Assembly: GCA_038321315.1 (NCBI GenBank)
Contig: JBBQEX010000005.1
Span: 100,097 to 164,096, forward strand
DNA from: Haliangiales bacterium
GTDB lineage: Bacteria; Myxococcota_A; Polyangia; Haliangiales; Haliangiaceae
Direction of reading: 5' to 3'
DNA length: 64,000 bases
Shown here: positions 1,305 through 16,730 of the stretch, in pieces
Layout: each line of letters starts with the position of its first letter
How positions within the stretch are numbered: position 1 is the stretch's first letter
The notes under the pieces: model-generated
Database searches by the model: none
What the model was told of the DNA's origin: nothing
The model's input: only the letters and a program-made list of their open reading frames with translations
Translations under genes and position numbers: made by a program

Positions 1305-4300
1305 GGGCCGCTCACGACGAGCTGACCACCCTTCTCGCGACCCCACAGCGTCGGGTCGTACATCGCCTCGGCGTCGATCGGCGGCACGGTGAACTTGCCG
1401 GCCGTCACGACGCGCACGGTGTAGATGATCGTCTTCGCGGTGCTGCCGGGCAGCGAGCCGAACATCTCGAGGTGGTCATCGCGCAGGTTCATGAAGTCCG
1501 CCGACCACTGGTCCTCGTCCTTGATCCAGTCGGCCTTGATCGAGCGCCCGAGCCGCGGGTTCTCGATCTCGAACCCGGCGGGCAGCCGATCGACGAGCGC
1601 GATGTTCTGGATCGCGGCGCCGCTCGTGTTCGCCAGCGTGAGCTCGACGAACACCAGGTCGCCGAGCTTCAAGCTGCCGTCGGCGAGGTTGACCTCGGTG
1701 CCGTCGAGGTTGCGGTAGGTGCGGCCGACCTTCAGGCCCTCGGCGCCCTCCTTGTACACGCCGTTCGGGCGCGTGCCCTCACTCGCGATCACCAGCCACA
1801 GCCCGGCGGCCGAGGCCGGCACGTCGAGCGTGAGCTTGCCGTACTCGCTCGCGCGCGACAGCGACCACGTCTTGTCGTTCGTCTTCTTCTTCGTCTTGCG
1901 CGGCTGGATCGTCGCGCCGTCCGCGACCAGCGTGCCGTCGGCGACGCCCTTGACGTTCGAGCCCTCGACCCACTTGCCGAGGCCGGTGATGCCCCACACG
2001 AGCTCCTGGGTGTTGTAGTAGCCGCTGCGCTCGCTCGCGAGCCCCTCGGCGACGCGCGTCGCGAGCACGTCGCCCGCGGGATCGTTGCCGAACAGATCGT
2101 GGAACGTCGACAGCATGAAGCCGCGGCGACGGCGATCCGAGTAGAAGCTCCAGCTGTTGATCCGGTCCTTCACGATCGGCGAGCTGTCGACCGCCTTCAG
2201 ATCCTTCTCGAACCGGCGGTCGCCCGCGAGGTAGAGCGCCGCCATCAGCGTGTAGCGATCCTCGGCCTGCTCGCCCTTCGCGGTCGCCGGAATCTCGGTG
2301 ACCAGCTTGAGGATGCGCGCCTTCTTGCCCTTGCCGCCGAGCGCGAGCACGTAGTGGAGGTACGCCTCGGACTGTTCGTCGTAGTGGTTCCACGGCTGGC
2401 GCTGGATCTTCGCGCCGCGCTCGTACTGCGCCGCGCGGTTCTCGATCCACGCCATCACGCCAGCGAGCCGATCGTCGGAGACCACGTACCCCGCCTTCTT
2501 GGCGTCGAGCAGCATGTGCGTCGCGTACGCGGTCGCCCACTCGAGCGGTTCGGTCGCGCCGGGCCAGTAGCCGAAGCCGCCCGACGGCGTCTCCATCGAC
2601 CACACGCGGTTGATGCCCGACAGCACCATGTCCTCGAGCTTGACCTCGGCGAGCTTGGGATCGACCTGATCGACGATGTTCGCGACGTAGAGCAGCGGCC
2701 GGGTCGACGACACGGTCTGCTCGATGCAGCCGAACGGATAGTGGATCAGGTAGTTCAGGTGATCGAACGACTCGCCGAACGGGTTCGTCGTCAGCCAGAA
2801 CGAGGTCTGCTCGCTGGTCGCCGCCCAGTTCTTGAGCGCCGGCTGCGCCGCGAGGTCGAGCGTGCCCGCGGCGACGTGGATCTTCTGGATCACGCGCTCC
2901 TTGGGGCCGGCCGGCAGGAACGGCACGTCGAGCTCGTCCCGTTCTTCGAAGGTGCCGACCGACGGCCCCTTGGCCTTCGCGGTGACCACGAGGTGCGCGC
3001 CACCGACCGGCATCATCGCCTTGGCGGCGAACACCAGCGTGTCGGCGCGGCCGTTCTCGAGCTTCACCGTCGTCGTGTTCTTGCCGGAGAACGTGATCGG
3101 TGGGCCCTTCACCTTGGGCGGTGCGAGGCCGGGGATCGCGATCAGCGTGCTGTCCATCGCGATCGTGATCTCGAGCGGCCCGCCCGACAGGTTCTGCAGC
3201 ATCACCGGGATCTGGAGCTCGTCGTTCTGGGTCACGAAGCGCGGGAACGTCGTCTGGATCACGAGCGGATCCTTGACCGTGACCTTGGCCTCGGCGCGGC
3301 CGATCTTCGTCGGCCCCGACGTGATCGCCATGACGCGCACCTGACCGCGATAGCTCGGCAGCTGGAACGGCACGACGAGCTTGCCGTCGTCGGGCACCTT
3401 CAGGAGGCCCGAGAACAACGCGACCGGCTTGACCGGCTGTACGCGATCCTTGCCGAGCGCGCCGCCCTCTTCACTCATCTCGCCCATGTCGCCGCCGCCC
3501 GTCTTGCTCGACGCGCCGGCCGGCTGATGCAGCATCGTCCAGCCGATCGTCTCGTAGGTCTCGACGCCGAGCGCGCGGCGCGCGAACAGCTGGCCGAGCG
3601 GATCGGGCGTCGGGAAGCTCGTGAGCGACAGGATGCCCTCGTCGACGACCGCGACGACCGCGAACGTCGGGCCGCTCGGCTTGTCGAGCTGCAACGTGAC
3701 GTCGAGCGCGGCCGACGAGCGGACCTCCTTGGGGACGTCGAGCGTGACGTTCTGCGTGTACGCGGTCGGCTTGACGCGCGCCGAGCCGACGCCGAACGCG
3801 CGGTCCGGCATGAACGCGTCCTTGCTCTCGAGGTGCGGATCCTTGACGACGAACGCCGACACGTAGACGTTCGGCGCGTAGTCGGCGAGCGTGAAGCTCC
3901 AGGTCGCGTCGCCGGCGGTGACGTCCTTCCACTCCGCGGTCACGACGTGATCGGTCTCGACCGTCCACAGCACGCGGCCCTTGTACGGCGCGTGGATCTT
4001 CACCGGCACGGCCTTGCCGGCCTCGATCTCCTTGGGCACGGTGACCGAGACCTTGGTCGGCTTCGCCGGCCGCGGCGTCGCGTCGACCGAGCCGCCCTCG
4101 TAGTAGCCGTAGTACTCGTACGGATACTCGCCCTCGACGGAGAGCTCGGTCTTCGCCTTGCCGGCGAAGACGTCGATCACGTAGCCCGCGCCGGCGTCGC
4201 TCGGCGTCACGTCGAACTTGAACTTGCCATCGACGACCTTGGCGGTCAGCTTGCCCTCGGGCACGTGCCGCATGTTGCGGTCGTAGCGCGACTCGCCGCT

Positions 4301-6999
4301 GTACTCGTCGTAGCCGTAGCCGTAGTCGAACTCGAGGTGCGAGAGCTCGACCGCGACCTCCTTGACCGCCGACGGCGCGACGCGACCCTTCCAGTCGACG
4401 ACGGTGCCCTCGACGGTGAACGTCGAGCCCGCGGTCGCGCGCTGCTCCTTGGTGCGCACGCCGAGATAGAACTTCTCGGGGTGCATCGTGACCGACGTGG
4501 TCTTGACCGTCGCGCGGCCGCTGCCGGCCTCGAGCACCGACGCCGTCGCGGACACGGTCGCGGTCTGCGCGAACGACGCCGTGCCGTCCGGCTCGGCGCA
4601 CGCGATGTCGAGCTCGCCCTTGCCGTCGAGCTGGCCCTTGGTCATGCCGAGGTTGACCTCCTTGCCCCGTGGATCGACACCATATGTCAGGTCGCCGTTC
4701 TCCTCGGGCGCGAACCGGCTCGGGGCGACCGTGCAGGTCAGCTCGACGCCGCTGTCGATCGCGGTGCCGCCGAACAGGTAGTTCGCGGCGACCGCGACGG
4801 TGATCGGCTGGCCGCCGAGCACGTCCTCGGCCTTGGGCGTGGTCGTGACCTTCATGCGCTCGGGCACGAACTCCTCGACCTGGATGTCGTACGCGCCGAG
4901 CGTCTTGTCGGCGACCGACAGCTCGACGCGCCAGTGGCCGGTGTCGGCGAACGCCGGGAACGCCTGGTCGAGCCCGATCACGCCGCCGCCGTTGGTCGGC
5001 AGCGTCAACTTGCGGACGATCTTGGCCTTGGGGTCGTAGAGCTTGACGTCGATCGGCAGCGCGTCCGACGGCGCCTTGTCCTTGGCGTCGCGCACGATCG
5101 CGGTGACGTGCGCGGTGTCGCCGGGGCGATACACGCCGCGGTCCGAGAAGATCGACGCGCGGTACGGGCTCTGCGCGAGGATCGGCACGCCCGACGTGCT
5201 CGACTCGGCGACGTCGGCGCGCAGGTCCTGGTAGCGGATGTACGTCAGGTCGTCGCCCTTCTTCGCGACCAGCGCGAACGGCTCGGCCTCGTCGGGATCG
5301 CCGGCCGACAGGCTCGACAGCTTGCAACCGTCGCCGCCGTTCGTCGTGCAGTGCGCGACCGACTTGCCGCTCTTGCGCACGAGCGAGATATCGACGCCGT
5401 CGACCAGGTCGGCGGTCTCCATGTCGAGCGCCCAGACCTGGACCTGCTGCTCCCACGGCTTGCCCGGCGTCGTGGTCTTCTTGGCGACCAGCGACAGATC
5501 GGTGAGCAGGAGGCGCGACGTCGCGGTCGAGCCGACCCCGACCAGCTTGAGCTCGAGCACGCCGCGCGTGTTGCTCGGCAGCAGCGAGCCGAGATCGAGC
5601 CACGACATCGTCGACGCGTCGGGGTCACCGCGCAGCGGCATCGTCTTGCGCAGGATCACGTTCGACGTGCGGTCGTCGGCGGCGTCGGTGCCCTGGTTGC
5701 CGAGCCAGAACACCAGGTTCTCCGGCGGGACCTGGCGGACGACCAGGTTCACGCCGTCCATGTTGAGGTGCTTGATGCCGAGGTTGGTCCACGCCGAGCG
5801 CGGCAGGTAGCGGCCGGTCGACGCGAACGACAGCTGCGACTTGCGCGCCGAGACGGTGAACGTGCGCGCGTAGTTCGCGAGCACGACGCCGCCGTCGATC
5901 GACTTGGCGCCGGCGTCGATCTTGATCGAGTACGCGCCGCGCTTGAAGTCGCCGAAGATGCGGAAGCCCGCGCGGCCCGGCGTCAGGTACGGCTTCTTGG
6001 GCGCCGGCGAGATGTGGATCTTCGCCATCGCGTCATCGGTGAGCTGGCAGCGCCGCGACAGGCTGTAGTAGCTCTCGCTGTCGCCGTACCACGAGCGCTC
6101 GCCCGGATCGGACGCGCCGTCATCGCACACGACCTCGAGGTAGAACCCGTTGGCGCCCTCGACGACCGAGACCGTCTTCACCGCGATCGCCTTGTCGGCG
6201 GCGATCGTGTACGTCGACGACACCGGTGGCACCTTCACCGCGCCGGTGTACGACGGCAGATCATTCCCGATCGTGAGCGTCACCTTGCTGCCGATCGCGA
6301 TCCGCGGATCGGTGAACTTCACGGCGACCGTGTTGGCGACGTGGCTCGCCATCAGCGTCGGCGGGATCGCCGGCTTGCCGTCGACCGCGAACGTCATCGC
6401 CGCGAACGCCTTGTTCGGGAGCACGGCGCCGGAGAACACGATCTCCATGACGACCTCGTGCTTGACGAGGTTGATGGTGGCGGGTGCGAACGTCAGGAAC
6501 TTGAACGCCGGCGTCTTGAACTCGTAGGTCCACTTCTCGTTGGCGGCGGGCTCGATCGCGCCGTCGCGGGTCTCGAGCTTCTGGAGGTCGAGCTTGTAGG
6601 TCGTGTCGAACTCGAACGGCTTGGCGGGCGTGAACGTCAGCTCCGACGTACCGCTGTAGCTCAGCGAGCCGGCGGTCTCGGGCGTGATCTTCAGCACCGA
6701 CAGCGGGCTCGGGTTGCCGATCTGCTCGCGATCGACGATCGAGGTCGCCAGCGAGATCGCGACGCCGGTGGGCACCACGTTCTCGACCGCGAGCTCCTTG
6801 ATGATCGGCGCCAGTGAGGCGGAGGTCACGGTCGCGCGTGGCGGCGGCTGATCGGGATCCTTGGTCGCGGTCTTACCGCTGCCGGACCCGGTCCCGACCG
6901 TCGCGGGCGACGACCCGAGGTCGTCGAGGGGCGACTTGTTCTTGCAGGCCACACCGGCCACCACCAGGACACAGGCTGACAACGCGATCCGACGGATCA
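1283..6999 (-). CDS. Alpha-2-macroglobulin family lipoprotein (large periplasmic protease inhibitor).
   Basis: 1933-aa ORF (1283..7084). The likely start is the internal M at about 6999 (MIRRIALSACVLVVAGVAC), which gives a lipoprotein signal with a lipobox. The size and the A2M-like bait/thioester-region architecture fit, and its stop overlaps the pbpC start (GTG 21 nt upstream of the TGA). The 1781-aa antisense ORF on the plus strand is an artefact. Confidence 0.8.
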
Positions 7000-7104
7000 T
7001 GTGATTCCCTTCCAAACGTTCCACCGCACCCACCCATTCCGATGTACGGCGCGCGGCACGATACCCCATCCGAAACACGACCATGCGGGTGTAGACTCGC
7101 TCTC

Positions 7105-8442
7105 GTGCGAACGCTCAACCGAACCCTGTTTGTTGCGTCGGTGTTGTCGGCAGCAGCGCCGATCGCAGCGGCCGATCCGGTCGCCGTGCCATGGACGCGC
7201 GGCCCCAACAGTTGCGGCACGCCGCAGATCGCGCAGGACCGCGACATCCCGGTCTACGACGCGGCGCCCGCCGGTGGGCAGCGCGTGCTGTGGGTCAACA
7301 AGCAGGGCGGTCACTTCACGGTGTCGTCGACCGACTCGACGAAGAACACGGTCTCGAGCAACATCCTGCAGACCAGCGTCTCGCAGTTCACGATCCCGAA
7401 GATTCCGACCGGCTTCGACTGGCCGGTCGTGCGCGCGTGCATCGACGAGGAGTTCAGCAAGTTCAACATCCGCGTCGTCGAGACCCGGCCGTCGGCCGGC
7501 GACTTCGTGCAGGCCGTCGTCGGCGGCACCGGCGCCGAGATCGGCTTCAACGCGCAGAGCGGCATCCTCGGCATCACCTCGACGGACAACTTCTGCCACG
7601 TCGCCGAGCGCGGCATCACGCTCAACTTCGCGCCCAACCACCTCGGGATCCTCAAGCCGAACCAGGAGCTGTGCGCGACGATCACGCACGAGGCCGGCCA
7701 CGCATTCTCGCTCGAGCACGAGATCCTCGGCATCGACCTCATGTCGTACGTGCCGGTCTCGCAGGCGGCGTCGAAGGAATTCGTCGATCAGAACCAGAAC
7801 TGCGGGACCGACCCGCAGACCCAGAACCCGTGCTCGTGCACGAGCGGGCAGACCAACTCGGGGATGCGGCTGACCGCGAACGTCGGCGCGCGTCCGACCG
7901 ATGGCACCGCGCCGTCGTTGACCGTGCAGTCGCCGAGCGACGGCAAGCTGGCGCCGTCGTTCGCCGTGGTCGCCAAGGCGACCGACGCGTCGGGCATGGC
8001 CGACGTCGTGGTCTCGATCGACGGTGAAGAGGTCGGCAACGACGAGGCGGGCTCGGGCGGCACGTACACGATCCCGGGCACCGCGTCGCTCGGCATGCAC
8101 ATGCTGACGGTCACCGCGCGCGACCTCGCCGGCAACGTCACCAAGAAGGACATCCCGGTCACCGTCGCGAAGCTCGAGATCGGCGAGACCTGCACCGGCA
8201 ACGACGCGTGTACCGGCAACCTGTGCGCGACCGGTGGCGACGGCACGATGTTCTGCACGCAGTCCTGCGATCCGGCGGCGAGCACGTGCCCCGATGGGTT
8301 CTCCTGCGACGCGACCGCCAAGGTCTGCTCCCCGTCGGACACCGGCGGCTGCTGCTCGGCGAGCACGCCGCGCCAGGGCGTGACCGCGATGCTGTTCGGG
8401 CTCGGCGTCGGCGCCATCCTGATCCGCCGCAAGAGGCGGTAA
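7105..8442 (+). CDS. Secreted zinc metalloprotease (HExxH) with a C-terminal MYXO-CTERM-like sorting signal.
   Basis: GTG start gives the signal peptide VRTLNRTLFVASVLSAAAPIAAADP. The HEAGHAFSLEHE zinc-binding motif is present. The C-terminus is Cys-rich (CTGNDACTGNLC...) and ends GGCCSASTPRQGVTAMLFGLGVGAILIRRKRR: a Cys motif, then a TM helix, then a basic cluster, as in MYXO-CTERM (TIGR03901). Confidence 0.7.
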   Translation: MRTLNRTLFVASVLSAAAPIAAADPVAVPWTRGPNSCGTPQIAQDRDIPVYDAAPAGGQRVLWVNKQGGHFTVSSTDSTKNTVSSNILQTSVSQFTIPKIPTGFDWPVVRACIDEEFSKFNIRVVETRPSAGDFVQAVVGGTGAEIGFNAQSGILGITSTDNFCHVAERGITLNFAPNHLGILKPNQELCATITHEAGHAFSLEHEILGIDLMSYVPVSQAASKEFVDQNQNCGTDPQTQNPCSCTSGQTNSGMRLTANVGARPTDGTAPSLTVQSPSDGKLAPSFAVVAKATDASGMADVVVSIDGEEVGNDEAGSGGTYTIPGTASLGMHMLTVTARDLAGNVTKKDIPVTVAKLEIGETCTGNDACTGNLCATGGDGTMFCTQSCDPAASTCPDGFSCDATAKVCSPSDTGGCCSASTPRQGVTAMLFGLGVGAILIRRKRR

Positions 8443-8501
8443 CAGTTACGGTTACGTTGCGAGCACGCTCGGGTGTCAGAGTGATCGCCTAGCGTCGTCG
8501 A

Positions 8502-8918
8502 ATGGCAATCGAAGTCACCGGCAGGCTCCACGTAATCTTCGAGACCAAGCAGGTCTCGGAGCGGTTCACGAAGCGCGAGTTGGTCGTCGAGATCGCGGAC
8601 GGCAAGTACCCGCAGTTCGTCCAGTTCCAGCTGTCCGGCGACCGCTGCACGCTCGCCGACCAGTTCCAGGTCAACGACCAGGTCCGCATCGAGTTCAACC
8701 TCCGCGGCCGGGAGTGGCGCTCGCCGCAGGGCGAGACCAAGTACTTCAACAGCCTCGACATCTGGAAGCTCGAGCCGGCCCGCGCGAACATGGCGCAGGG
8801 CTCGTCGGGCAACCGGTCGCGGCCGGACAGCTTCGGCGGCAGCCCGCGCGTCGATCTCGACATGCCGGCTCACATGCGCGACGACGCGCCGCGCCCGGAC
8901 GACGACATCCCGTTCTGA
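8502..8918 (+). CDS. DUF3127-family small OB-fold-like protein.
   Basis: 138 aa: MAIEVTGRLHVIFETKQVSERFTKRELVVEIADGKYPQFVQFQLSGDRC...RIEFNLRGREW...KYFNSLDIWKLE, which matches the DUF3127 pattern (iTGkiievlpeq...YPq.v.F.lwgdk...v.f...sREy.gRwfT...aWk.e). Confidence 0.6.
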   Translation: MAIEVTGRLHVIFETKQVSERFTKRELVVEIADGKYPQFVQFQLSGDRCTLADQFQVNDQVRIEFNLRGREWRSPQGETKYFNSLDIWKLEPARANMAQGSSGNRSRPDSFGGSPRVDLDMPAHMRDDAPRPDDDIPF

Positions 8919-8944
8919 GCCCCGCGACGGTGTAGGGTGGCGGC

Positions 8945-10636
8945 GTGCAGAACCGGGTTGTCATCATCACCGGTTCTTCTCGGGGCATCGGCCTCGCGCT
9001 CGCCGAGGGTTGCGCCGCGCGCGGCGATCGCGTGGTCGTTCACGGTCGCGATGCGGCCCGCGTCGCCGAGGCGATCGCGCAGATCCGCGCCGCGGTCGGC
9101 GACAGCGGGGAGCTCGTCGGGATCACCGCCGATCTCGCGACCGTCGCCGGTGCCGAGCAGCTCGTGCGCGAGTCACTCGCGGCGTTCGGCCGGATCGACG
9201 TGCTGGTCAACAACGCCGCGACCACCGCGTCGCGTGCCCCGCTGTGGGAGATCGAGCCGCACGAGCTCGCCTCGGTGATCGCGACCAACGTGATCGCGCC
9301 GATGGCGTGCGCGCGCGCCGTGCTCGCGTGGGCGGTGCTGCGCGACGAGCCGGTCCGCATCGTCAACGTGTCGTCGGGGATCTCGACGCGGCCGCGCGCC
9401 GATGCCGCGGCCTACGCCGCCAGCAAGGCCGCGCTCGACGCGTTCACCCATGGCCTCGCGCGCGACCTCGCGACCTCGCGGGCCACGGTCACCGGGATCG
9501 CGCTCGCCGGTCATCGCACCGAGCTCGCGCGCCGCGCGTTGCCGGCCGACGAGTACGCCGCGCTGCCCGAGGCCTCGGCCGCGGTGCGTCGCTTGCTGAC
9601 CGTGATCGGCGCGCCCGCCGAGGACGTCCACGGCCGGATCATCGCGGGTGGCGACGGTCCGCCGATCGACATCGACGGTGCCGACCTGATCGAGCATCCC
9701 CTCGGCGCCTCACCGCGCGCCCGCGCCGCGCTTGCCGCGGTCGCGACCGAGGGCTCGCTCGAGCGCTATCCGGAGGCGTCGCCCCTCGCACTGCGCAAGG
9801 TGCTCGCGGCGCGGTTCGGCGCGGCGCTCGACGCGATCGTGCTCGGCGCCGGCGCGAGCGAGCTGCTCGATCGCGTCGTGCGCGTCGCGCTCCAGCCCGG
9901 CGAGACCATCGTCGCGAACTCGCCGAGCTGGCCGGGGCTCGCCCATGCGTGTCGCGCACACCGGCTGGCGTGGAAGCAGGTGCCGTACCGTCTCGTCGAC
10001 GGGCGCGCCGATCACGACCTCGACGCGGTGCTCGCGGCGGTCGATCGGTCGACGCGCCTGGTCTACCTGACGAGCCCGGCGAACCCCGGCGGTGCCGCGA
10101 TCGACCGCGCCGCGTTCCTCGCGTTCGTCGCGGCGCTGCCGCGCCACGTGACGATCGTCGTCGACGAGGCGTACGCCGAGTACGTCCAGCGCCCCGACGC
10201 GCTCGAGGCCGCGGCGCTCGTCCGCGCCTCGGATCGCCCGTTCGTCGTGCTGCGGACGTTCTCGAAGTTCTACGGGCTCGCCGGGCTGCGCATCGGGTTC
10301 GCGATCGCGACCGACCCGCTCGCGCGCCAGCTCGCCGCGGCGGCGCCGGCGTTCCCGCTCGCGCGCGGCGCGGCCGAGGCGGCGATCGCCGCGCTCGGCG
10401 ATCTCGAGCACGCCGCGAAGACCCGCGCCGCCATCGCGACCGGACGCGCGCGCCTGATCGCCGAGCTCGACGCCCGGGGCATCGCCCACCTGACGAGCGA
10501 CGCGCCATTCCTGCTCGCCGCGGTGCCCGAGTCCTTCGAGGTTCACGGGCCGCGCTACTTCGATCGCCGCTATGTGATGCTGTCCGTCGCGAAGGAGATC
10601 CCGTGGCCGAACGTGGACGCGAGCACGACCCGGTAG
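8945..10636 (+). CDS. Fusion protein: an N-terminal short-chain dehydrogenase/reductase (SDR) joined to a C-terminal class I/II aminotransferase of the HisC/CobD type.
   Basis: 563 aa. The N-terminus has the SDR Rossmann motif VVIITGSSRGIGLALA and the catalytic YxxxK (YAASKAAL). The C-terminal half has histidinol-phosphate/threonine-phosphate aminotransferase-family motifs (LTSPANPGG, VVDEAYAEY, and RTFSKFYGLAGLRIGFAI with the PLP lysine). Confidence 0.7.
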   Translation: MQNRVVIITGSSRGIGLALAEGCAARGDRVVVHGRDAARVAEAIAQIRAAVGDSGELVGITADLATVAGAEQLVRESLAAFGRIDVLVNNAATTASRAPLWEIEPHELASVIATNVIAPMACARAVLAWAVLRDEPVRIVNVSSGISTRPRADAAAYAASKAALDAFTHGLARDLATSRATVTGIALAGHRTELARRALPADEYAALPEASAAVRRLLTVIGAPAEDVHGRIIAGGDGPPIDIDGADLIEHPLGASPRARAALAAVATEGSLERYPEASPLALRKVLAARFGAALDAIVLGAGASELLDRVVRVALQPGETIVANSPSWPGLAHACRAHRLAWKQVPYRLVDGRADHDLDAVLAAVDRSTRLVYLTSPANPGGAAIDRAAFLAFVAALPRHVTIVVDEAYAEYVQRPDALEAAALVRASDRPFVVLRTFSKFYGLAGLRIGFAIATDPLARQLAAAAPAFPLARGAAEAAIAALGDLEHAAKTRAAIATGRARLIAELDARGIAHLTSDAPFLLAAVPESFEVHGPRYFDRRYVMLSVAKEIPWPNVDASTTR

Positions 10637-11751
10637 CTTGGTACGGCGGCGGCCAGTCGTGGTCCGAGGAGGACGAGGCCGCCTATCAGGCGCAGCTCGA
10701 GCGCGCGCGGATCCAGCGGACGCCGTATCCGTCGAAGCGCACGGTCGCAGGCTTCGGCGATCCGGCGCCGCTCGGCGCGCGCGGCCTGGTCGCCGGCCGG
10801 TTCCTGCCGATGCACCGCGGCCACCAGTACCTGCTCGACTTCGCGACCGCGTCGGTCGAGCACCTGGTGATCCTGGTCGCGACCCGGCCCGACGATCCGC
10901 TCCCGTATCACCTGCGCGCGCGCTGGCTCGCCGAGCTGTACCCCGACGCGCAGCTCGCCGAGCTGACGATGGCGATCGACGGCGACACGCGCGAGCTCGC
11001 CGCGCGGATCCGGACGATCGCGGGCGAGCCGACGCACTTCTTCGCGTCGGAGCCGAGCTACGTGGCGATCGCGAACGAGCTGCGCGCGACGTTCGTGCCG
11101 GTCGATCCGACGCGCATCGTGATCCCGACCTCGGGCACCGCGATCCGCGCGAACGTGATGGAGAACTTCCACTTCATCGTGCCGCCGGCGCGGCCGTGGT
11201 TCGCGCGTCGCGTCGCGGTCGTCGGCGCCGAGTCGACCGGCAAGTCGACGCTGTGCGCGCAGCTGCGCGACGCGTTCGAGGCCGTCGTCGTGCCCGAGTA
11301 CGCGCGCACGCTCGGCGCGATGCCGTCGAGCGCGGTCCAGCTCGTGGCGCGCAGCCAGATCGCGTCGGAGGACGCGCTCGCCCTCCAGGTCCCCGGTGGC
11401 AACGGTGGCGGGTTGCTCGTGTGCGACACCGATCTGCGCGCGGTCAAGCTGTGGTCCGATCGGCTCTACGAGGGCGATCTGCCGCCGTGGATCGAGGCCG
11501 CGATCGCGGTGCGACCGTACGACCTCTACCTGTTGTGCAGTCCGGACATCCCGTTCGTCGGCTATCCCGAGCGCGATCACCCGGTCGATCGCCGGACGTT
11601 CCACGACCTCCTGCTCGCGTCGCTCGCCGGTCAGCCGGTCGTGCTCGTCGAGGGCGATCGTGCCGAGCGCTTCCAGATCGCGTCCGACGCGATCGTGTCG
11701 CTGTTCTCGCCGACGACGCTGTTGTCCGCCCGCGGCACCACGATGATCTGA
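10603..11751 (+). CDS. NadR-like bifunctional NMN adenylyltransferase / ribosylnicotinamide kinase, without the HTH domain.
   Basis: This is the 3-prime part of the 9010..11751 ORF frame. The nucleotidyltransferase motif is GRFLPMHRGHQYLL (GxFxPxHxGH) and the P-loop is VAVVGAESTGKSTL, which matches the NadR RNK-domain Walker A. The probable GTG start overlaps the end of the upstream fusion gene by about 30 nt. The Arg-rich 5-prime 530 codons of that ORF are an artefact. Confidence 0.6.
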   Translation: MAERGREHDPVAWYGGGQSWSEEDEAAYQAQLERARIQRTPYPSKRTVAGFGDPAPLGARGLVAGRFLPMHRGHQYLLDFATASVEHLVILVATRPDDPLPYHLRARWLAELYPDAQLAELTMAIDGDTRELAARIRTIAGEPTHFFASEPSYVAIANELRATFVPVDPTRIVIPTSGTAIRANVMENFHFIVPPARPWFARRVAVVGAESTGKSTLCAQLRDAFEAVVVPEYARTLGAMPSSAVQLVARSQIASEDALALQVPGGNGGGLLVCDTDLRAVKLWSDRLYEGDLPPWIEAAIAVRPYDLYLLCSPDIPFVGYPERDHPVDRRTFHDLLLASLAGQPVVLVEGDRAERFQIASDAIVSLFSPTTLLSARGTTMI

Positions 11752-11768
11752 GCTGAGTTAGCATCGCC

Positions 11769-13163
11769 GTGATGCCACGTTACGAATTCGTCGAGGGGAC
11801 GTCGAAGAAGTTCTGGGAGATCGCGGTCGCCGGCAAGGCCGTCACCACGAAGTGGGGACGCCTCGGCACACCCGGGTCGGAGAAGACCAAGGCGTTCGCG
11901 AGCCCGGCCGCGGCGCAGAAGGAGCACGACAAGCTGGTCGCCGAGAAGACCAAGAAGGGTTACGCGGCGGTCGGCGGCAAGCCGGCCAAGGCGAAGGCGG
12001 CCAAGGCGGCCGCGCCGGTTGTTGAGGAGCCGCGCAACGCGGCGCTCGAGAAGGCGATCCGCGACGATCCCGACGACGACGGCGCGTACGGTGTGTACGG
12101 CGACTGGCTCGCGCAGCAGGGCCACCCGCGCGGCGAGCTCGCGACCGCGCAGCTCGCGCGCAACACCGCGGTCGCCAAGAAGCTGCTCGCCAAGCACGCG
12201 GCGCTATGGGGCGAGCTCGCCGGGCTCGAGGACGTCGTCACGAACGTGATCTGGAAGGGCGGGTTCATCGAGCGCGCGCGCGTCGCGAACACGTTCGAGC
12301 GCTCGACGATGCACGGCGGCGAGAAGTCGACGATCGACGTCGCCGACGTGGTCGGCAAGCTGCTGGCCGGGCCGGGGCGGTTCCTCCGCGAGCTCGTCGT
12401 CGGGATCGTCGACTACGAGGGCAACGGCTACCGGGACGTCGTGAAGGCGATCGCGGCCCACAAGTCGGTCCCGACGCTGCGCTCGCTGTACTTCGGCGAC
12501 TTCCACTCCGAGGAGACCGAGCTCAACTGGAGCGCGATCGGCGAGATCACCGAGCTCGGCAAGGCGTGCCCGAACCTCCAGCGCCTGAAGCTGCGCAGCG
12601 GCGGCATGAAGCTCGGCAAGCTCGACTTCCCGAACCTCGTCGGCCTCACGATCTTCAGCGGGGGCCTCGATCCGGCGAGCAGCAAGGCGATCGCCGATGC
12701 GAAGTGGCCGAAGCTCGAGAAGCTCGACCTCATGTTCGGGCGCAAGAGCCACGGCGCGCTCGCGACCGCCAAGCCGCTGCAGGCGCTGTTCGACGCCAGG
12801 TCGGTCCCGCGGCTGACCGCGCTCGGGATCAAGAACTTCGAGTTCCACGCCGAGCTCGTCCCGATGCTGTTGCGCAGCAAGCTGCTCCGCCAGCTCGAGA
12901 CGCTCGATCTGTCGCTCGGCACGATGGGCGACGCCGAGGCCGCGCTGCTGCTCGCGGGCAAGGCGCAGCTCGCGCACCTGAAGAGCCTCGACGTCTCGGA
13001 GAACTTCTTCACCGCGGCCGGGTTGAAGACGCTCAAGCAGATCGGCATCCCGATCGAGACCAAGAGCGGCAACGGGAGCGCGTGGAACAGCAACAAGCTC
13101 GGCCAGCGCGACGACGAGGATCCCGAGGATCCGTCGGATCGTTACGCGTCGATCTACGAGTAG
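11769..13163 (+). CDS. WGR-domain protein with a TIGR02996 repeat-companion motif and a leucine-rich-repeat (RNI-like) C-terminal domain.
   Basis: The N-terminus has KKFWEI...TKWGRLGTPG (WGR domain). Then comes DDPDDDGAYGVYGDWLAQQGHPRGEL, a TIGR02996-type motif. The remaining ~300 aa have regular LxxLxLxxN/G spacing (LQRLKLRSGGMKLGKLDFPNLVGLTIFSGGL...). Confidence 0.6.
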   Translation: MMPRYEFVEGTSKKFWEIAVAGKAVTTKWGRLGTPGSEKTKAFASPAAAQKEHDKLVAEKTKKGYAAVGGKPAKAKAAKAAAPVVEEPRNAALEKAIRDDPDDDGAYGVYGDWLAQQGHPRGELATAQLARNTAVAKKLLAKHAALWGELAGLEDVVTNVIWKGGFIERARVANTFERSTMHGGEKSTIDVADVVGKLLAGPGRFLRELVVGIVDYEGNGYRDVVKAIAAHKSVPTLRSLYFGDFHSEETELNWSAIGEITELGKACPNLQRLKLRSGGMKLGKLDFPNLVGLTIFSGGLDPASSKAIADAKWPKLEKLDLMFGRKSHGALATAKPLQALFDARSVPRLTALGIKNFEFHAELVPMLLRSKLLRQLETLDLSLGTMGDAEAALLLAGKAQLAHLKSLDVSENFFTAAGLKTLKQIGIPIETKSGNGSAWNSNKLGQRDDEDPEDPSDRYASIYE

Positions 13164-13184
13164 AACTACGAGTAAGGTCAGGCG

Positions 13185-13805
13185 ATGAAAGCTGCCGCGC
13201 TCGCCATCCTCCTCGCGTCGTCGTCGCTCGCGCTCGCCGACAAGCCGGCACCCAAGGTCGACGTGATCGCGACCCAGCTCGACGGCCTGAAGACCGCCGC
13301 GAAGTGCGCCGACGCGACGTCGCCGTGGCGACCGTGGTGCATCGCGACGAGGTTCGCGACCGGCACCGTCGCGGATCTGCCGAAGGGCAAGGTCCTCGTC
13401 GGGCTGTCGATCCGGCTCGAGAAGGGCAAGGACCTCGCCGACGCGCTGTCGAATCGGGTGACGCTCGCCGCGCTCGCGATCGACGCCGACGGCAAGGTCA
13501 AGCTGACCGACGTCACGCCGAGCAACGACGGCGAGTCGACGATGATCGGCAAGGCCGTGTTCAACGCGTCGGCGGTGTTCAAGGGCAAGGCGACCTCGAT
13601 CGACGTGCCGAAGGAGCTCGCGGGCTACATCGGGACGCTCAAGGGCGCGTACGCCGCGACCAGGACCGCGACCGAGTGGACGTGGACCGGCAAGTCGGCG
13701 ATGCACCTGCGCAAGGTCGACAAGTTCTGGGTCGCGATCGAGGTGCCCGACGCGCAGGACGGGATCTTCGCGACGATCTTGACCGACGCCTGGGCCGGCA
13801 AGTAG
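13185..13805 (+). CDS. Secreted hypothetical protein.
   Basis: 206-aa ORF with the signal peptide MKAAALAILLASSSLALADKP and typical GC3 bias. Confidence 0.55.
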   Translation: MKAAALAILLASSSLALADKPAPKVDVIATQLDGLKTAAKCADATSPWRPWCIATRFATGTVADLPKGKVLVGLSIRLEKGKDLADALSNRVTLAALAIDADGKVKLTDVTPSNDGESTMIGKAVFNASAVFKGKATSIDVPKELAGYIGTLKGAYAATRTATEWTWTGKSAMHLRKVDKFWVAIEVPDAQDGIFATILTDAWAGK

Positions 13806-13806
13806 C

Positions 13807-15345
13807 TCAGCCTTCGATCACGAAGCGCTCGTGCTCGCTGGCGAGCTCGCGGCCGGTCGGCGACACCACGGCGCGCTCGTCGTCACACGGGATCGCGAGG
13901 TCGTCGATCGCGAGCAGGCCGTCGACGATCGCGAGCTCCTCGGGCGGTAGCTCCCACGTGACGGCGTCGACGATCTCGACGCGCTCGGCGGCGATCGCGA
14001 GCTCGTGCAGCGTTCCGGCGTGCCGCCAGAACAGCCGCGTGCCGTCGGCCGAGAACCCGAGGCGGTCGCTCTCGCGCGCGGGAGCCGCGAGCTCGGCCTC
14101 GAACAGGCGCGCGCCGCTGGCGACGTCGTGAACGACGAGGCCGCCGCGCGACCACACCGCATGGCGCTCGCCGGCCGCGTCGAACGCGACGAGGTCGCCG
14201 TGGCGCGCGCCCCGGCGTCGATCGTCGATCGCGAGCTCGCCGTCGGTGGTCCGCCACGCGCGAAACGCGAACGGCGTGATCTCCATGAACGCGGCATTGC
14301 CGAGGCGCTGGCAGTCGCGCGGCGGACCGCCCTCGAGCCAGCCCGGGCCGTTGACGTCGAGCACCCTGACCACCGCGGGGTCACCGGCGCGCGCGAGGAA
14401 CGGCGCGGTGAACACGTGCGCGCCGTCGGGCGAGAAGGCGATCTTCCGCCACGCACGGCCGCGTGCGGGCATCGCGACCTGCGCGGCGAGCGCGAGGTCC
14501 GGGTCCCACACGCGGATCACGCCGCCGCCGTAGGTGACGATCGCACCATCGGGGGCGATCGCGAGCTCGCCGGGATCGAAGCAACCCCAGCTGCCACCGA
14601 CCGCCCCGGTCTCGACGTCGCGCAGCGAGAGGCCCTCGCTCTCGACGCACACCAGCGCGCCGTCGCGGAGCCCGGCGGTGCCGATCCGGCCCTCGGCGCG
14701 CCAGATCACCCGGCCGCGCGCGGGATCGATCAGGTAGCTCGCGTGGTCGTAGGCGTCGCCGTAGTCGAACGCCTCGGTGATCACGATCGCGAGCTCGGTG
14801 CCGATCGGCACGAGGTGGGTCGCGGCCTCGCCGTCGCCGGTCTCGAGCTCGACCCGGCGGGTGCCGTCGTCGAGCACGGCGCGGCCGTCGCGCGCGGGCA
14901 TGCGCTCGGTGATCAGCCGCCACGGCGATCGCGGTTCGACGACGAGCCCGCGCGGATCGATCGTGCGGCCGGTGCCGCGATCCCACGCGATCGCGCCGGC
15001 GATCCCGATCACGCCGGCGCCGTCGACGTCGCGGACCGCGAGCGACCCGGTCGCGTCGGTGCGGTACTCCTCGACGATGCCGGCGGGCAGGGGCCACGGA
15101 CCACCGAGCGCGCGCAGCCAGCGCTTGCCGGGCGCCCACGCCGCGACCCACGCGTCGATCGGCGCGCGCCGGCGCACGAGACACGGGATCGCGAGCTCCG
15201 GACGCACCGCGGTGAGCGCGAGATCGATCCGGATCAGGCGCGCGAGCTCGCGGCGCGCCGGATCGGCGATCGACCACTCGGCGATCAGCGCCGGCAGCTG
15301 ACCGGCCTCGGCCTCGTCGAGCACGCGCCCGAGCTCTTCGATCAC
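13807..15345 (-). CDS. Hypothetical protein, possibly a beta-propeller, translationally coupled to sthA.
   Basis: 512-aa ORF. Its ATG overlaps the sthA stop (ATGA), so it is the third gene of the HDOD-sthA operon. It has repeated G-x-V/I-x-VWD-like segments. I recognise no family. Confidence 0.5.
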   Translation of the reverse strand: MIEELGRVLDEAEAGQLPALIAEWSIADPARRELARLIRIDLALTAVRPELAIPCLVRRRAPIDAWVAAWAPGKRWLRALGGPWPLPAGIVEEYRTDATGSLAVRDVDGAGVIGIAGAIAWDRGTGRTIDPRGLVVEPRSPWRLITERMPARDGRAVLDDGTRRVELETGDGEAATHLVPIGTELAIVITEAFDYGDAYDHASYLIDPARGRVIWRAEGRIGTAGLRDGALVCVESEGLSLRDVETGAVGGSWGCFDPGELAIAPDGAIVTYGGGVIRVWDPDLALAAQVAMPARGRAWRKIAFSPDGAHVFTAPFLARAGDPAVVRVLDVNGPGWLEGGPPRDCQRLGNAAFMEITPFAFRAWRTTDGELAIDDRRRGARHGDLVAFDAAGERHAVWSRGGLVVHDVASGARLFEAELAAPARESDRLGFSADGTRLFWRHAGTLHELAIAAERVEIVDAVTWELPPEELAIVDGLLAIDDLAIPCDDERAVVSPTGRELASEHERFVIEG

Positions 15346-16730
15346 CCCGCGATCGTGCCACGTCCGCCGCGCTGGCGCAGGACGTCGAGCGCCGCGACGC
15401 GATAGGCCTCGCCGAGCGTCGGGAAGTTGAAGACGTTGTCGACGAACGCGTCGGCCTCCCAGCCGGCGATCATCGCGATCTGACCGACGTGGACCAGCTC
15501 GGCGGCACCCTCACCGACGACGTGGACGCCGAGCACGCGGCGACCCGAGGGATCGCACACCAGCTTCAGGAGGCCATCTTCGATCGCGGAGATCTGCCCG
15601 CGCGCGAGCTCGCCGAACCGCGCGCGTCCGACGACCGCCCCGGGGACCTGCGCCTCGGTCAGGCCGACGCTGGCGAGCTCGGGGATCGCGTAGACGCCAG
15701 CGGGGATCAGCTCGGCCGATGGCGGAACCGGGAGCGCGAGCGCGTGACACGCGGCGCGCCGACCTTGCTCCATCGCGGTCGCCGCGAGCGACGGCGGGCC
15801 GATCACGTCGCCGACCGCGTAGATGTGCGGGACCGCGGTGCGGCCGTGGCGGTCGACCTCGAGGAGGCCGCGCGCGGTCGCGACGAGGCCGGCGGCGTCG
15901 AGCGCGAGCCCGCTCAGGTTGGCCTCGCGGCCGAGGCAATAGAGCAGCTTCTCGGACTCGAGGCGGCGACCGTCGTCGAGCGTGGTGGTCACCGCGACGC
16001 CGTCCCACGCGATCGTGCGCGCGCTGCGGCCGCCGAGGTAGGTGCCGCCCTGGCGGGTGAACGCGCGGACCAGCTCGTCGGTCATCTCCTCGTCGAAGAA
16101 GGCGAGCGGGCGGGGCGAGCGATCGATCATCGTCACGCGCACGCCGAGCGCGGCGAACGTGCACGCGTACTCGGTCGCGATCACGCCGCTGCCGATCACC
16201 GCGAGCGAGCTCGGCAGGTAGGTCAGCGACAGGATCGAGTCGCTGTCGAGCACGTTCTCGTGATCGATCGGCACGTCCGGCGGGTTGCGCGGATGCGAGC
16301 CGGTCGCGATCACGACGTGCGTGCCGGTCGCGGTGCGCCGCGAGCCATCGACGCCGCGGACCTCGACGTCGTGCGGCGAGGTGAACCGCGCGCGGCCGTG
16401 CCAGCGCGCGACGCCGTTGCGATCGAGTTGGTCGGCGATGAACCGCTGGTGCGACGCGATCACGTCGCCGACGCGGGTCATCAGGCTGGCGAGCTTGAGA
16501 TCGGCGGGCGGCTGGACATCGAGGACACCGCCCGACCGCCGGCGCAGGAGGCCGAGCGCGACCGCGGTCTCCCGCAGCGTCTTCGACGGGATCGTGCCGC
16601 GGTGCACGCACGCCCCGCCGGGGTGCGCGCCCTCCTCGATCACGACGACGCGTGCGCCGGCCTTGGCCGCCTGGACCGCGGCCTTCTGGCCGGCCGGGCC
16701 GCTGCCGATCACGACCATGTCGAACTTCAC
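15342..16730 (-). CDS. sthA: Soluble pyridine nucleotide transhydrogenase (flavoprotein disulfide reductase family).
   Basis: 462 aa: [80 protein letters not shown]. These align closely with E. coli SthA ([63 protein letters not shown]). Confidence 0.85.
   Translation of the reverse strand: [462 protein letters not shown]

Follow-up and report, generated by a model that had tools for sequence, protein, structure and literature searches.

A conserved Myxococcota gene pair encoding an SDR–aminotransferase fusion and an HTH-less NadR-like protein

HTH-less NadR proteins that are associated with the nicotinamide-riboside transporter PnuC are exemplified by Lactococcus lactis NadR (PDB 6GYE; PMC7221760) and by the phage system Bas30_86/87 'NARP3' (PDB 9X6F; PMC13464706). 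In Bas30_86 the loop between β3 and α5 is an experimentally supported NMN gate, while KVP40 NatV is an active NMNAT despite having a short, non-aromatic loop (PMC13464706). Single-chain PnuC–NadR fusions also exist, and canonical NadR domains are additionally found fused to NAD(P)H-dependent A-T-R reductases. Altemicidin biosynthesis includes a PLP 'aminotransferase' (SbzP/PsePQ) for which β-NAD serves as a building block; in Pseudomonas PsePQ the PLP domain follows an oxygenase domain in the same chain (PMC13518217).

The gene pair described here comes from a soil-type myxobacterial genome. Within the window, by which we mean the whole 64 kb stretch of DNA that was analysed, five genes lie on a single strand from 8502 to 13805, and no gap between them exceeds 26 nt (Table 1). 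The spacing is 26 nt between the DUF3127 gene and the fusion gene, and 17 nt between the NadR-like gene and the WGR gene. The three open reading frames, the motifs and the gene overlap reported in an earlier note on this DNA are all present, and its domain assignments are borne out by profile searches against Pfam and NCBIfam. The fusion protein contains TGSSRGIG, YAASK and RTFSKFYGLAGLRIGFA, and the NadR-like protein contains GRFLPMHRGHQYLL and GAESTGKST. The overlap between the two genes amounts to 34 nt, indicating translational coupling. The GTG start of the NadR-like gene lies six nucleotides past AAGGAG, and its product matches a database protein of equal length (P0121) in every residue. 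Only the closest relative (L088, 95% identity) shares the DUF3127 gene; in L001, L004, L089 and L091 it does not precede the pair.

Table 1. Features of the region, with nucleotide positions in the window or residue ranges in the encoded proteins.
Feature	Position	Strand	Remarks
DUF3127 gene	8502..8918	+	Pfam DUF3127, E = 5.5e-25
SDR–aminotransferase fusion gene	8945..10636	+	563 aa; Pfam and NCBIfam matches
Fusion: classical SDR	aa 1–236		
Fusion: disordered linker	aa 237–249		
Fusion: HisC-family PLP domain	aa 250–563		
Overlap of fusion 3' end and NadR-like start	10603..10636	+	34 nt
NadR-like gene	10603..11751	+	382 aa; GTG start, AAGGAG RBS
NadR-like: clade-specific N-terminal extension	aa 1–59		WxGGGxW and Pro-rich stretch
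NadR-like: NMNAT-like nucleotidyltransferase	aa 60–200		
NadR-like: RNK-like P-loop kinase	aa 201–365		
NadR-like: conserved C-terminal tail			LLSARG
WGR + TIGR02996 + LRR (STM4015-like) gene	11769..13163	+	Likely start ATG 11772
206-aa protein gene	13185..13805	+	Signal-peptide-like N-terminus

The pairing of the fusion gene with the HTH-less NadR-like gene is real and conserved. They are arranged head to tail, mostly with an overlap, in nine fetched loci from a Myxococcota clade, with protein identities of 44–60%. The NadR-like gene directly follows the fusion gene in L001, L004, L089, L091/L092, L095 and L096; in L094 the SDR end is cut off, and in L085 an aminotransferase-only gene precedes the NadR-like gene. 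The junction is an overlap of 8 nt in L001, 19 nt in L004 and L085 and 4 nt in L091, and a gap of 6 nt in L089. About 20 further contigs appear in the hit lists of both proteins with identical lengths, which implies that the pair is present there. In a metagenome scan, an aminotransferase gene lay upstream in all three clade members and in none of the 48 other NadR homologues. The overlapping junction is retained down to ~44% identity while the other neighbours change. The closest relative (L088) has an intact fusion gene, but its scaffold jumps 14.3 kb past the NadR-like gene, and in another clade member (L086) the NadR-like gene is not preceded by a fusion. A search of 1.84 billion representatives gave no single chain combining both proteins in its best 150 matches. 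As the pair is conserved and translationally coupled, some functional link between the two proteins is likely. The pair-bearing loci all come from one phylum, and shared ancestry therefore contributes to the synteny.

As in the PnuC systems, the NadR-like gene is the second gene of a translationally coupled two-gene unit, but here the partner is an SDR–PLP enzyme. Outside the clade, NadR homologues follow PnuC or are fused to it: PnuC lies directly upstream of six of the 48 non-clade homologues in the metagenome scan and precedes NadR in the closest outgroup locus (L087, ~40% identity). The NadR-like clade is confined to Myxococcota and nested among nicotinamide-riboside salvage enzymes, falling inside the PnuC-linked group in a neighbour-joining tree. 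PnuC was found neither in the window nor in the called flanks of eight clade loci, nor by tblastn in L094–L096. In this clade, the SDR–PLP enzyme has replaced PnuC as the partner.

The NadR-like protein has the two-domain NMNAT and RNK architecture and the fold of L. lactis NadR and Bas30_86 (Foldseek TM of 0.63–0.75). TIGR01526 (nadR_NMN_Atrans) matches it over positions 4–310 of 325 (E = 5e-42) and Pfam AAA_28 matches with an E value of 1e-21. The earlier assignment as HTH-less stands: there is no HTH match in Pfam, and the N-terminal extension does not align with residues 1–60 of E. coli NadR. The top eight Foldseek matches of the AF2 model (pLDDT 91.8, pTM 0.84) are all NadR structures (E values of 2e-21 to 7e-14, TM of 0.62–0.75), headed by 8x7f, 1lw7 and 6gye. 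The TIGR01526 score of 144.4 bits is far below the curated cutoff of 341.15, and NF005988 (full-length NadR repressor) gives 87.8 bits against a cutoff of 201; for comparison, the TIGR01526 scores of the L089 protein (184 bits) and of a PnuC-linked relative (275 bits) are likewise under the 341 cutoff.

The motifs shared by HTH-less NadRs (HxGH, SxTxxR, Walker A GxESxGKS and Walker B DTD) are all present. GRFLPMHRGH and SGTAIR correspond to the nucleotidyltransferase motifs GxFxPxHxGH and SxTxxR, and in the 58 clade sequences as in the 54 outgroup sequences conservation is 85% or more at H71, G73, H74, S177, G178 and R182; the same level is reached by the P-loop and Walker B among the 58 clade sequences. 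None of the 22 aligned clade members departs from HxGH, SGTxxR or Walker A/B, and the same holds for GAESTGKST, CDTD, E232 and D275, the last two being the equivalents of Bas30_86 E230 and D275. Loss of the catalytic His and Lys residues would, according to the earlier note, have spoken against its reading; both His residues of HxGH and the P-loop Lys are retained.

Differences from the HTH-less NadRs are found in the recognition loop, the lid and the termini. The nicotinamide-recognition loop was compared at Bas30_86 residues E80, P84, Y86, G89 and W90 and at YPHGW of E. coli. Its PQ..HPDFW sequence is at least 90% conserved in the 54 outgroup sequences and is gapped or less than 50% conserved in the 58 clade members. 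In the window it reads DGDTRELAARI. The loop is shorter than the NMN gate of L. lactis NadR and Bas30_86, and none of its aromatic residues is invariant. The clade proteins have also lost the lid Asp and have GRF in place of GKF, and their N-terminal extension of ~60 residues and C-terminal tail are conserved across the 58 sequences. The argument from the loop is a soft one: PnuC-fused NadRs, which surely handle nicotinamide riboside, deviate too, lacking the first loop Trp and having Phe in the lid, and so does the active, short-looped NatV. As judged from the alignment, the clade loop is unconserved rather than re-conserved, and relaxed constraint would fit equally well as a new specificity.

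The fusion protein matches Pfam adh_short over residues 4–197 (E = 6e-41) and Aminotran_1_2 over residues 256–525 (E = 1.5e-44). Its AF2 model has a pLDDT of 84, with values below 50 in the linker, and Foldseek relates the N-terminal half to FabG-type SDRs (target-normalized TM of 0.79–0.90) and the C-terminal half to Rv3772 and HisC. The cofactor motif, the NNAG-type motif and the N-S-Y-K catalytic residues of a classical SDR are all present: TGxxxGxG, NNAA and residues T9, G10, G14, G16, N89, N115, S143, Y157 and K161 are invariant in 20 aligned homologues. The SDR half is predicted to be catalytically intact. It carries basic residues that are typical of NADP(H) users in the established SDR classification.

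The aminotransferase half has the fold of the HisC family (~27–32% identity to E. coli HisC and Mycobacterium tuberculosis Rv3772, PDB 4R2N), and its nearest solved structure is that of the Phe/aromatic aminotransferase Rv3772. Like HisC it retains the residues that bind PLP, among them the Schiff-base Lys of SKxxGLAGLR; the 18 clade and 14 proteobacterial fusions share the equivalents of HisC Y55, N157, D184, Y187, S213, K214 and R222, with the single exception of Y55 (17 of the 18 clade members). Unlike HisC, it is fused behind an SDR and the N-terminal arm is missing. HisC residues D85, Y110, R322 and R335, which we take from the E. coli structures to be substrate-binding, are not retained: D85 is replaced by Ser and Y110 by an invariant Trp, R322 is deleted in the alignment and the R335 position is Met (Leu or Val in the proteobacterial fusions). 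Both Arg residues are kept in stand-alone HisC-like matches. The profile alignment (hhalign) ends at HisC residue 307; the region of R322 and R335 cannot be aligned, and the 49 C-terminal residues of HisC that contain them are replaced by the shorter motif GPR[YF]FDxRY[VA]M[LV]P. Two Arg residues of the clade motif GPR[YF]FDxRY (R537 and R542), close to the lost positions, could substitute for those that were lost.

It is highly improbable that this half works as HisC in histidine synthesis or as CobD, the threonine-phosphate decarboxylase of cobamide synthesis. HisC (TIGR01141, 198.9 bits) and, lower down, CobD (TIGR01140, 148.4 bits) are its best NCBIfam matches and the fold is HisC-like, but both scores are below the curated cutoffs (276.55 and 290.55, respectively), the hisC match spans only profile positions 29–299 of 349 and the CobD structure (PDB 1LC5) is a distant match (E = 1e-12). 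HisC was rejected as an assignment on its score, on the changes at D85 and Y110 and on the replaced R322/R335 region, and the CobD-like role that the earlier note had kept in view is unlikely. No histidine or cobamide genes were found nearby in the annotated stretches of the window from 1283 to 33253.

The same domain order occurs in SDR–aminotransferase fusions of ~650 residues from Beta- and Gammaproteobacteria, which are 35% identical over both halves and also have Trp at HisC position 110 and a non-Arg residue at 335. They differ in being longer, with a basic extension at the N terminus and a C-terminal domain of full length, in lying among genes for FemAB-like acyltransferases and glycosyltransferases in exopolysaccharide/O-antigen clusters, and in having no NadR-like neighbour. 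Members of this group, for example those of Aquabacterium sp. J223 and Thiohalobacter sp. IOR34, carry only generic annotation. The likeness to SbzP and PsePQ is one of concept only, namely an N-terminal redox domain joined to a class I/II-fold PLP domain in pyridine-nucleotide specialized metabolism; a specific relationship in sequence was not apparent, the PDB neighbours of the aminotransferase half are all HisC-type, and the redox domain is an SDR rather than the 2-oxoglutarate oxygenase of PsePQ.

Rather than plain NAD salvage, we tentatively favour a conserved two-gene metabolic module with unrelated neighbours, in which both proteins would belong to a single cytoplasmic pathway for a non-canonical substrate. 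The gene structure, the domains, the conserved pairing, the exchange of PnuC for another partner and the motifs gained and lost are observed; the functional coupling, the substrate type and the reaction direction are what we infer. The first protein would be a bifunctional enzyme, with an SDR, a flexible linker and a HisC-derived PLP domain with an altered C-terminal segment, that interconverts hydroxyl, carbonyl and amine groups on a substrate other than histidinol phosphate or threonine phosphate. The second, combining a NadR-family nucleotidyltransferase with a P-loop kinase, would be a kinase, and probably an adenylyltransferase, for a ribosyl- or alcohol-bearing metabolite, either the same one or one linked to it, and endogenous synthesis would replace PnuC-mediated uptake. 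In HldE (heptose) and CobU (cobinamide), kinase and nucleotidyltransferase functions are combined to turn alcohols or sugars into activated nucleotide derivatives. By analogy, phosphorylation and then nucleotidyl transfer may take place on one polypeptide beside enzymes that make amino or hydroxy substrates, although the protein families are unrelated and the analogy is mechanistic only. Plain NAD salvage is a somewhat less likely alternative. Here, the NadR-like protein would be a nicotinamide-riboside kinase and NMN adenylyltransferase that is co-transcribed with an unrelated SDR–aminotransferase, perhaps since both concern pyridine-nucleotide-dependent metabolism. Such a role is consistent with the retention of every catalytic motif and of the NadR fold, with the PnuC-linked closest outgroup, with the dispensable loop aromatics of NatV (PMC13464706) and the missing first loop Trp of PnuC-fused NadRs, and with L088 and L086, where either gene occurs without the other adjoining; the A-T-R reductase fusions place NadR beside redox enzymes with no motif change. 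It is opposed by the failure to find PnuC in the clade loci searched, the low TIGR01526 score, the decayed loop, the lost lid Asp and the new, conserved extensions, and by an overlapping junction that outlasts the other neighbours.

In most relatives a PRMT-like methyltransferase, a DMATS prenyltransferase and a P450 lie downstream, where the window has the WGR–LRR gene, and the block of fusion, NadR-like, methyltransferase, DMATS and P450 genes is found in six loci (L001, L004, L089, L091, L094 and L095). The 'unknown' gene of the block matches DMATS-type prenyltransferase structures (E = 2e-15) and its P450 retains the heme Cys motif. These common neighbours point to specialized metabolism rather than signalling, and an NAD-derived small molecule is a possible, putative product. 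The pair might be part of a small specialized-metabolite cluster based on tryptophan or another aromatic amino acid, with a remnant in the window, but we consider this unlikely. The aminotransferase and SDR would turn a (prenylated) amino acid into the 2-oxo acid and the 2-hydroxy acid, the DMATS, P450 and methyltransferase would tailor it and the NadR-like enzyme would be accessory. The six-locus block, the proximity to the aromatic aminotransferase Rv3772 and the NADP(H)-type residues of the SDR, which favour reduction, agree with such a cluster. However, all three tailoring genes are missing from the window and L093 while the pair genes remain intact, Arg is missing from the canonical carboxylate-binding position, the kinase/adenylyltransferase is left without a role and the proteobacterial fusions belong to polysaccharide clusters, not aromatic pathways.

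The WGR–LRR gene is a bystander outside the conserved pair. Its product (463 residues from the database start ATG 11772; P0241) does have the N-terminal WGR domain recognized earlier (PF05406, residues 8–67, E = 6.4e-18), together with a TIGR02996 domain above its cutoff and an LRR-type region that scores 172.6 bits against NF038076 (STM4015), below the cutoff of 275; Pfam LRR matches are weak. It belongs to a large Myxococcota paralogue family with this domain combination, of which one contig carries three copies. The earlier note had suggested a nucleotide- or NAD-derived small-molecule or signalling module of all three genes; in such a module the WGR protein would sense or bind the product. 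The common strand, the 17 nt spacing and L093, which alone shares the order NadR-like, LRR and 206-residue protein, are in keeping with this, yet it is very unlikely and is largely refuted by L093 itself, where the orthologue begins past the WGR domain. Synteny in relatives holds for the pair but not for the WGR gene: eight of the nine related loci have other genes downstream, and the gene is absent from the fully checked loci L001, L004, L085, L089 and L091 and gave no tblastn match in L094–L096. No PARP catalytic (ADP-ribosyltransferase) domain was found in the WGR protein with Pfam or NCBIfam, and the only match in PADLOC-DB 2.0 was that of the WGR domain to 95 of the 973 positions of WGR_XIII (26.8 bits), the other five proteins having none. 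The 206-residue protein has no family match in Pfam or NCBIfam; an orthologue with 50% identity directly follows the LRR gene in L093, and the protein associates with the LRR gene, not with the fusion/NadR-like pair.

The five open reading frames at 8502–13805 all lie on the plus strand, separated by no more than 26 nt, and show a strong third-position GC bias, in a window with a G+C content of about 70%. The observation made in the earlier note stands: all of the quoted motifs were found, and Pfam and NCBIfam agree with the domain assignments. The gene for the SDR–aminotransferase fusion overlaps the NadR-like gene by 34 nt. The latter starts with a GTG codon behind AAGGAG, the sole start codon of that frame within 10450–10810, and its product is identical to a database protein. 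A promoter and terminator scan of 6500–14500 gave nothing over shuffle expectation, and the operon boundaries are drawn from spacing.

Features of the window and of related loci (L numbers; the trio comprises a methyltransferase, an approximately 300-residue protein and a P450)
Sequence	Feature	Coordinates	Strand	Basis
Window	Putative bacterial alpha-2-macroglobulin, 1933 aa	1283-7084	-	Length and position only
Window	DUF3127	8502-8918	+	ORF call
Window	SDR-aminotransferase fusion, 563 aa	8945-10636	+	Pfam/NCBIfam: SDR and class I/II aminotransferase
Window	NadR-like, 382 aa	10603-11751	+	Pfam/NCBIfam: NadR-type NMNAT and AAA_28 kinase
Window	WGR gene	11769-13163	+	Pfam/NCBIfam: WGR, TIGR02996 and LRR-type STM4015-like region
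Window	206-aa gene	13185-13805	+	ORF call
Window	SthA, Si-specific NAD(P)+ transhydrogenase	15342-16730	-	NF003585, 525 bits (cutoff 465)
Window	Major vault protein homologue, 834 aa	30749-33253	-	Pfam MVP_shoulder (E 8e-25) and Vault_3
L088	Match to window 5528-10622 and 24971-25388	1-5557		
L085	Stretch with aminotransferase-only gene (294 aa) before NadR-like gene	9135-11122		
L001	Trio	12763-15885		
L004	Trio	12582-15375		
L089	Trio	12825-15969		
L091	Trio	11126-14108		
L094	Trio			
L095	Trio			
L002, L003	Fusion of about 650 aa (Aquabacterium sp. J223, Thiohalobacter sp. IOR34)	10001-11950/11965		

The two genes form a conserved, translationally coupled pair. The NadR-like gene lies directly 3' of the fusion gene in the related loci L001, L004, L089, L091/L092, L095 and L096, where the genes overlap by up to 19 nt or lie up to 6 nt apart; the contig edge truncates the fusion at its SDR end in L094. 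A further 20 contigs stand in the match lists of both proteins, each with the same length in both; several of these lengths have six digits and cannot agree by chance. In L085, on a 6.26-Mb Kofleriaceae contig, the gene before the NadR-like gene encodes the aminotransferase half without the SDR, making the PLP half the part of the fusion that stays with the NadR-like gene. Immediately before the aminotransferase-only gene of this locus, the opposite strand carries a PPK2 gene. No single-chain fusion of the SDR–aminotransferase with the NadR-like protein was present among the best 150 HMMER matches from 1.84 billion representatives.

Two loci are exceptions. In L086 a member of the Myxococcota clade of window-type NadR-like proteins follows a response regulator gene, and the fusion is missing from its upstream side. 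L088, the scaffold of the closest relative, is 86% identical to the window across the first matching segment and carries an intact fusion gene. It is colinear to 20 nt beyond the start of the NadR-like gene, where it skips 14.3 kb and resumes in a hybrid histidine kinase gene, which there lacks a receiver domain. The missing stretch holds the NadR-like, WGR, SthA, HDOD and class I ribonucleotide reductase genes, and the jump may be a real deletion or a chimeric assembly.

The usual view of NadR is that of an enzyme and regulator dedicated to NAD salvage, and the two-gene unit of NadR and PnuC is a textbook example of uptake by metabolic trapping. In a metagenome scan seeded with the N-terminal half of the NadR-like protein, which yielded 51 loci, an aminotransferase was found upstream of the NadR gene in all three clade members versus none of the 48 others, six of which have PnuC directly upstream. 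In the outgroup locus L087 the PnuC gene overlaps a NadR gene whose product is 40% identical to the window protein, and an exhaustive HMMER search showed that PnuC–NadR single-chain fusions also exist. No PnuC homologue was found within the 64-kb window. In a crude neighbour-joining tree calculated without bootstrap, the clade forms one group nested among PnuC-linked NadRs that lack the HTH domain. The coupling is specific to one NadR clade whose linkage to PnuC has been lost, and the simplest reading is that this clade swapped PnuC for the SDR–PLP enzyme as the 5' partner of the NadR-like gene.

The AF2 model of the NadR-like protein is confident (pLDDT of 91.8), and its best structural matches are the NadR proteins of E. 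coli, H. influenzae and L. lactis. Motifs were compared between 58 clade and 54 outgroup sequences. The catalytic His and Lys residues, whose absence the earlier note had named as a refutation, are retained in the window protein; clade and outgroup alike conserve HxGH, SGTxxR, the P-loop and Walker B. The equivalents of Glu230 and Asp275 of Bas30_86, a phage HTH-less NadR that works with PnuC, are also kept in both groups; mutation of either residue abolishes NAD regeneration (PMC13464706). The differences concentrate on the acceptor side. The β3–α5 loop, which in Bas30_86 gates and binds NMN (PMC13464706), reads PQ..P..H..FW in at least 90% of the 54 outgroup sequences, whereas in the clade it is shortened and has no residue at 50% conservation (DGDTRELAARI in the window). 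In addition, GRF stands in place of GKF, Phe replaces both the Trp that follows SGTxxR and that of the kinase lid, and the lid Asp is lost. The clade also has a 60-residue N-terminal extension, marked by a conserved WxGGGxW motif and a stretch rich in Pro (pLDDT of about 80 for residues 22–57), and a clade-specific C-terminal LLSARG tail. Scores against TIGR01526 (cutoff 341 bits) fall from 275 bits for a PnuC-linked relative to 184 for L089 and 144 for the window.

We had at first taken the loss of three Trp residues as strong evidence against nicotinamide binding. This argument is mostly withdrawn: the first loop Trp is equally missing from NadRs fused to PnuC, whose lid also has Phe, although nicotinamide riboside must be a substrate of these proteins. 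NatV of phage KVP40 has a short loop without aromatic residues and is nevertheless active as an NMNAT (PMC13464706), and an unconserved loop is also expected under relaxed constraint. The sequence is therefore compatible with a change of acceptor as well as with an NMNAT activity that is kept but less tightly gated.

Other NadR proteins were met in the course of the searches. Metagenome loci L113–L116 hold an intermediate NadR group with a clade-type N-terminal AWYGGSW that keeps the Trp-containing loop and a DPWxHW motif; NadR is followed by a P450, and an aminotransferase was not found upstream in these four loci, which makes the N-terminal extension older than the link to the fusion. Three database proteins of 1307–1362 residues (P0425, P0461 and P0500) are single chains in which a canonical NadR domain, with the HPDFW loop retained, is joined to an adenylation domain and a reductase (NAD_binding_4); P0461 and P0500 have a PP-binding carrier domain and P0425 does not. 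NadR is joined to a methyltransferase in P0370 and to an extra cytidylyltransferase in P0400. NadR domains thus seem to be used in contexts beyond salvage.

In the fusion enzyme, the SDR cofactor motif and Asn115, Ser143, Tyr157 and Lys161 are kept in 20 homologues. Basic residues mark NADP(H) users in the standard SDR classification, and Arg13 and Arg35 would place the SDR half among them. The PLP half keeps all of the cofactor-binding residues of E. coli HisC, and its nearest structures are HisC-family enzymes, the aromatic aminotransferase Rv3772 first. It scores 199 bits against a curated HisC cutoff of 276.55 and 148 bits against a CobD cutoff of 290.55, and neither identity was retained. 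A HisC or CobD role, the latter left open in the earlier note, is thus very unlikely. Ser occupies the position of HisC Asp85 and an invariant Trp that of Tyr110. The last 49 residues of HisC, including Arg322 and Arg335, have no alignable counterpart (hhalign ends at HisC residue 307), although longer proteobacterial fusions do align through to the HisC end and, via them, Met, Leu or Val is found at the position of Arg335. Two nearby Arg residues, in the clade motif GPR[YF]FDxRY[VA]M[LV]P, are conserved in 17 of 19 sequences. Because of this unalignable segment and these two residues, the loss of the canonical substrate arginines is graded as probable rather than proven; a MAFFT alignment initially taken as proof was dropped once profile alignment showed that the segment cannot be aligned. 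The AF2 model has two well folded domains and a disordered linker at residues 237–249. Both proteins of the pair thus retain cofactor and catalytic sites but differ from the families they are named after at positions on the substrate side.

Database matches to the fusion fall into two groups. Those of 500–580 residues are 44–87% identical, and every source name is Myxococcales, Kofleriaceae or a Deltaproteobacteria MAG; those of about 650 residues are 31–39% identical, and all seven named members are Pseudomonadota, including a Rhodobacteraceae MAG and the sources of L002 and L003. Both of these proteobacterial loci place the fusion inside exopolysaccharide/O-antigen clusters, among several FemAB-like (Acetyltransf_6) genes, Wzy, Wzz, ABC exporters and glycosyltransferases, and neither has a NadR-like neighbour. 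This suggests that the proteobacterial fusions help to make an amino substituent of a glycan. The fusion is widespread but uncharacterized, present in databases under generic names only; a literature search on natural SDR–HisC fusions found nothing relevant.

The earlier note had proposed a three-gene NAD-signalling module that included the WGR protein. The synteny holds for the fusion and NadR-like genes and fails for the WGR protein as a component. We had at first concluded that the WGR gene is never syntenic, but one closer relative, L093, shares the gene order and is the only locus to share the window's own downstream genes: a NadR-like gene (55% identical) is followed by LRR (65%) and 206-aa (50%) orthologues. 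The LRR orthologue begins at the equivalent of residue 71, without the WGR domain. WGR–TIGR02996–LRR proteins form a large Myxococcota family, with three members on one 1.02-Mb contig; Pfam found no PARP domain in the window protein, and a PADLOC scan gave no defence-system membership, only a 27-bit WGR domain match. We therefore regard the WGR protein as a neighbour specific to the lineage and no component of the system; a signalling module built on it is highly improbable.

In six relatives the pair is instead followed by a trio: a convergent PRMT-like methyltransferase, a gene of about 300 residues and a P450 with an intact Cys ligand motif. The second is a DMATS-type aromatic prenyltransferase, with a profile match to PDB entry 4YL7 (E = 2e-15). 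L096 has the methyltransferase alone and L085 parts of the rest. The trio looks like a small specialized-metabolite cluster, and none of its three genes lies within the window. In a further reading, which we consider rather improbable, the pair would belong to a prenylated-aromatic cluster, with a remnant left in the window.

We tentatively favour a shared pathway, in which the SDR–PLP enzyme would make or modify a substrate bearing a hydroxyl, carbonyl or amine, and the NadR-like enzyme would phosphorylate and probably adenylylate it. The main rival, ordinary NR/NMN salvage merely co-transcribed with the fusion, is a serious contender that we rate lower: as the A-T-R reductases show, which depend on NAD(P)H and are fused to canonical NadR domains, NadR can stand beside redox enzymes unchanged, yet here a whole clade has a biosynthetic enzyme in the transporter's place and a decayed nicotinamide gate loop. 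A more specific form of the shared pathway is speculative and, as a whole, unlikely: a Myxococcota NadR branch recruited from vitamin salvage to biosynthesis would act as kinase and adenylyltransferase on an amino-alcohol or aminated ribosyl metabolite, giving a previously unknown ADP-linked compound or NAD analogue that is methylated, prenylated and oxidized in most relatives.

Recruitment of this kind would clearly exemplify how an enzyme of cofactor salvage is turned to new chemistry. It would also add one more to the very few pathways that have pyridine nucleotides or nucleoside-like scaffolds as their starting point. If the NadR-like protein is a normal NR kinase/NMNAT, the operon is unusual and of interest mainly for annotation. 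All of the domains are of known kinds, and HTH-less NadRs have already been characterized; the pairing, the PnuC replacement and the distinct NadR subfamily appear to be undescribed, since literature searches found nothing on them.

Other genes of the region were also noted. With SthA, the region has a second gene of pyridine-nucleotide metabolism, 3.6 kb away from the NadR-like gene and oriented oppositely; its proximity is probably a coincidence. In L004 and L085, the pair is preceded at a distance of a few kilobases by genes with Pfam domains of alpha-2-macroglobulin (1919 and 1899 aa), so that some of the wider synteny in the lineage is simply inherited. The 834-residue protein is, by its domain matches, the bacterial counterpart of the major vault protein of eukaryotes, to which it is homologous.
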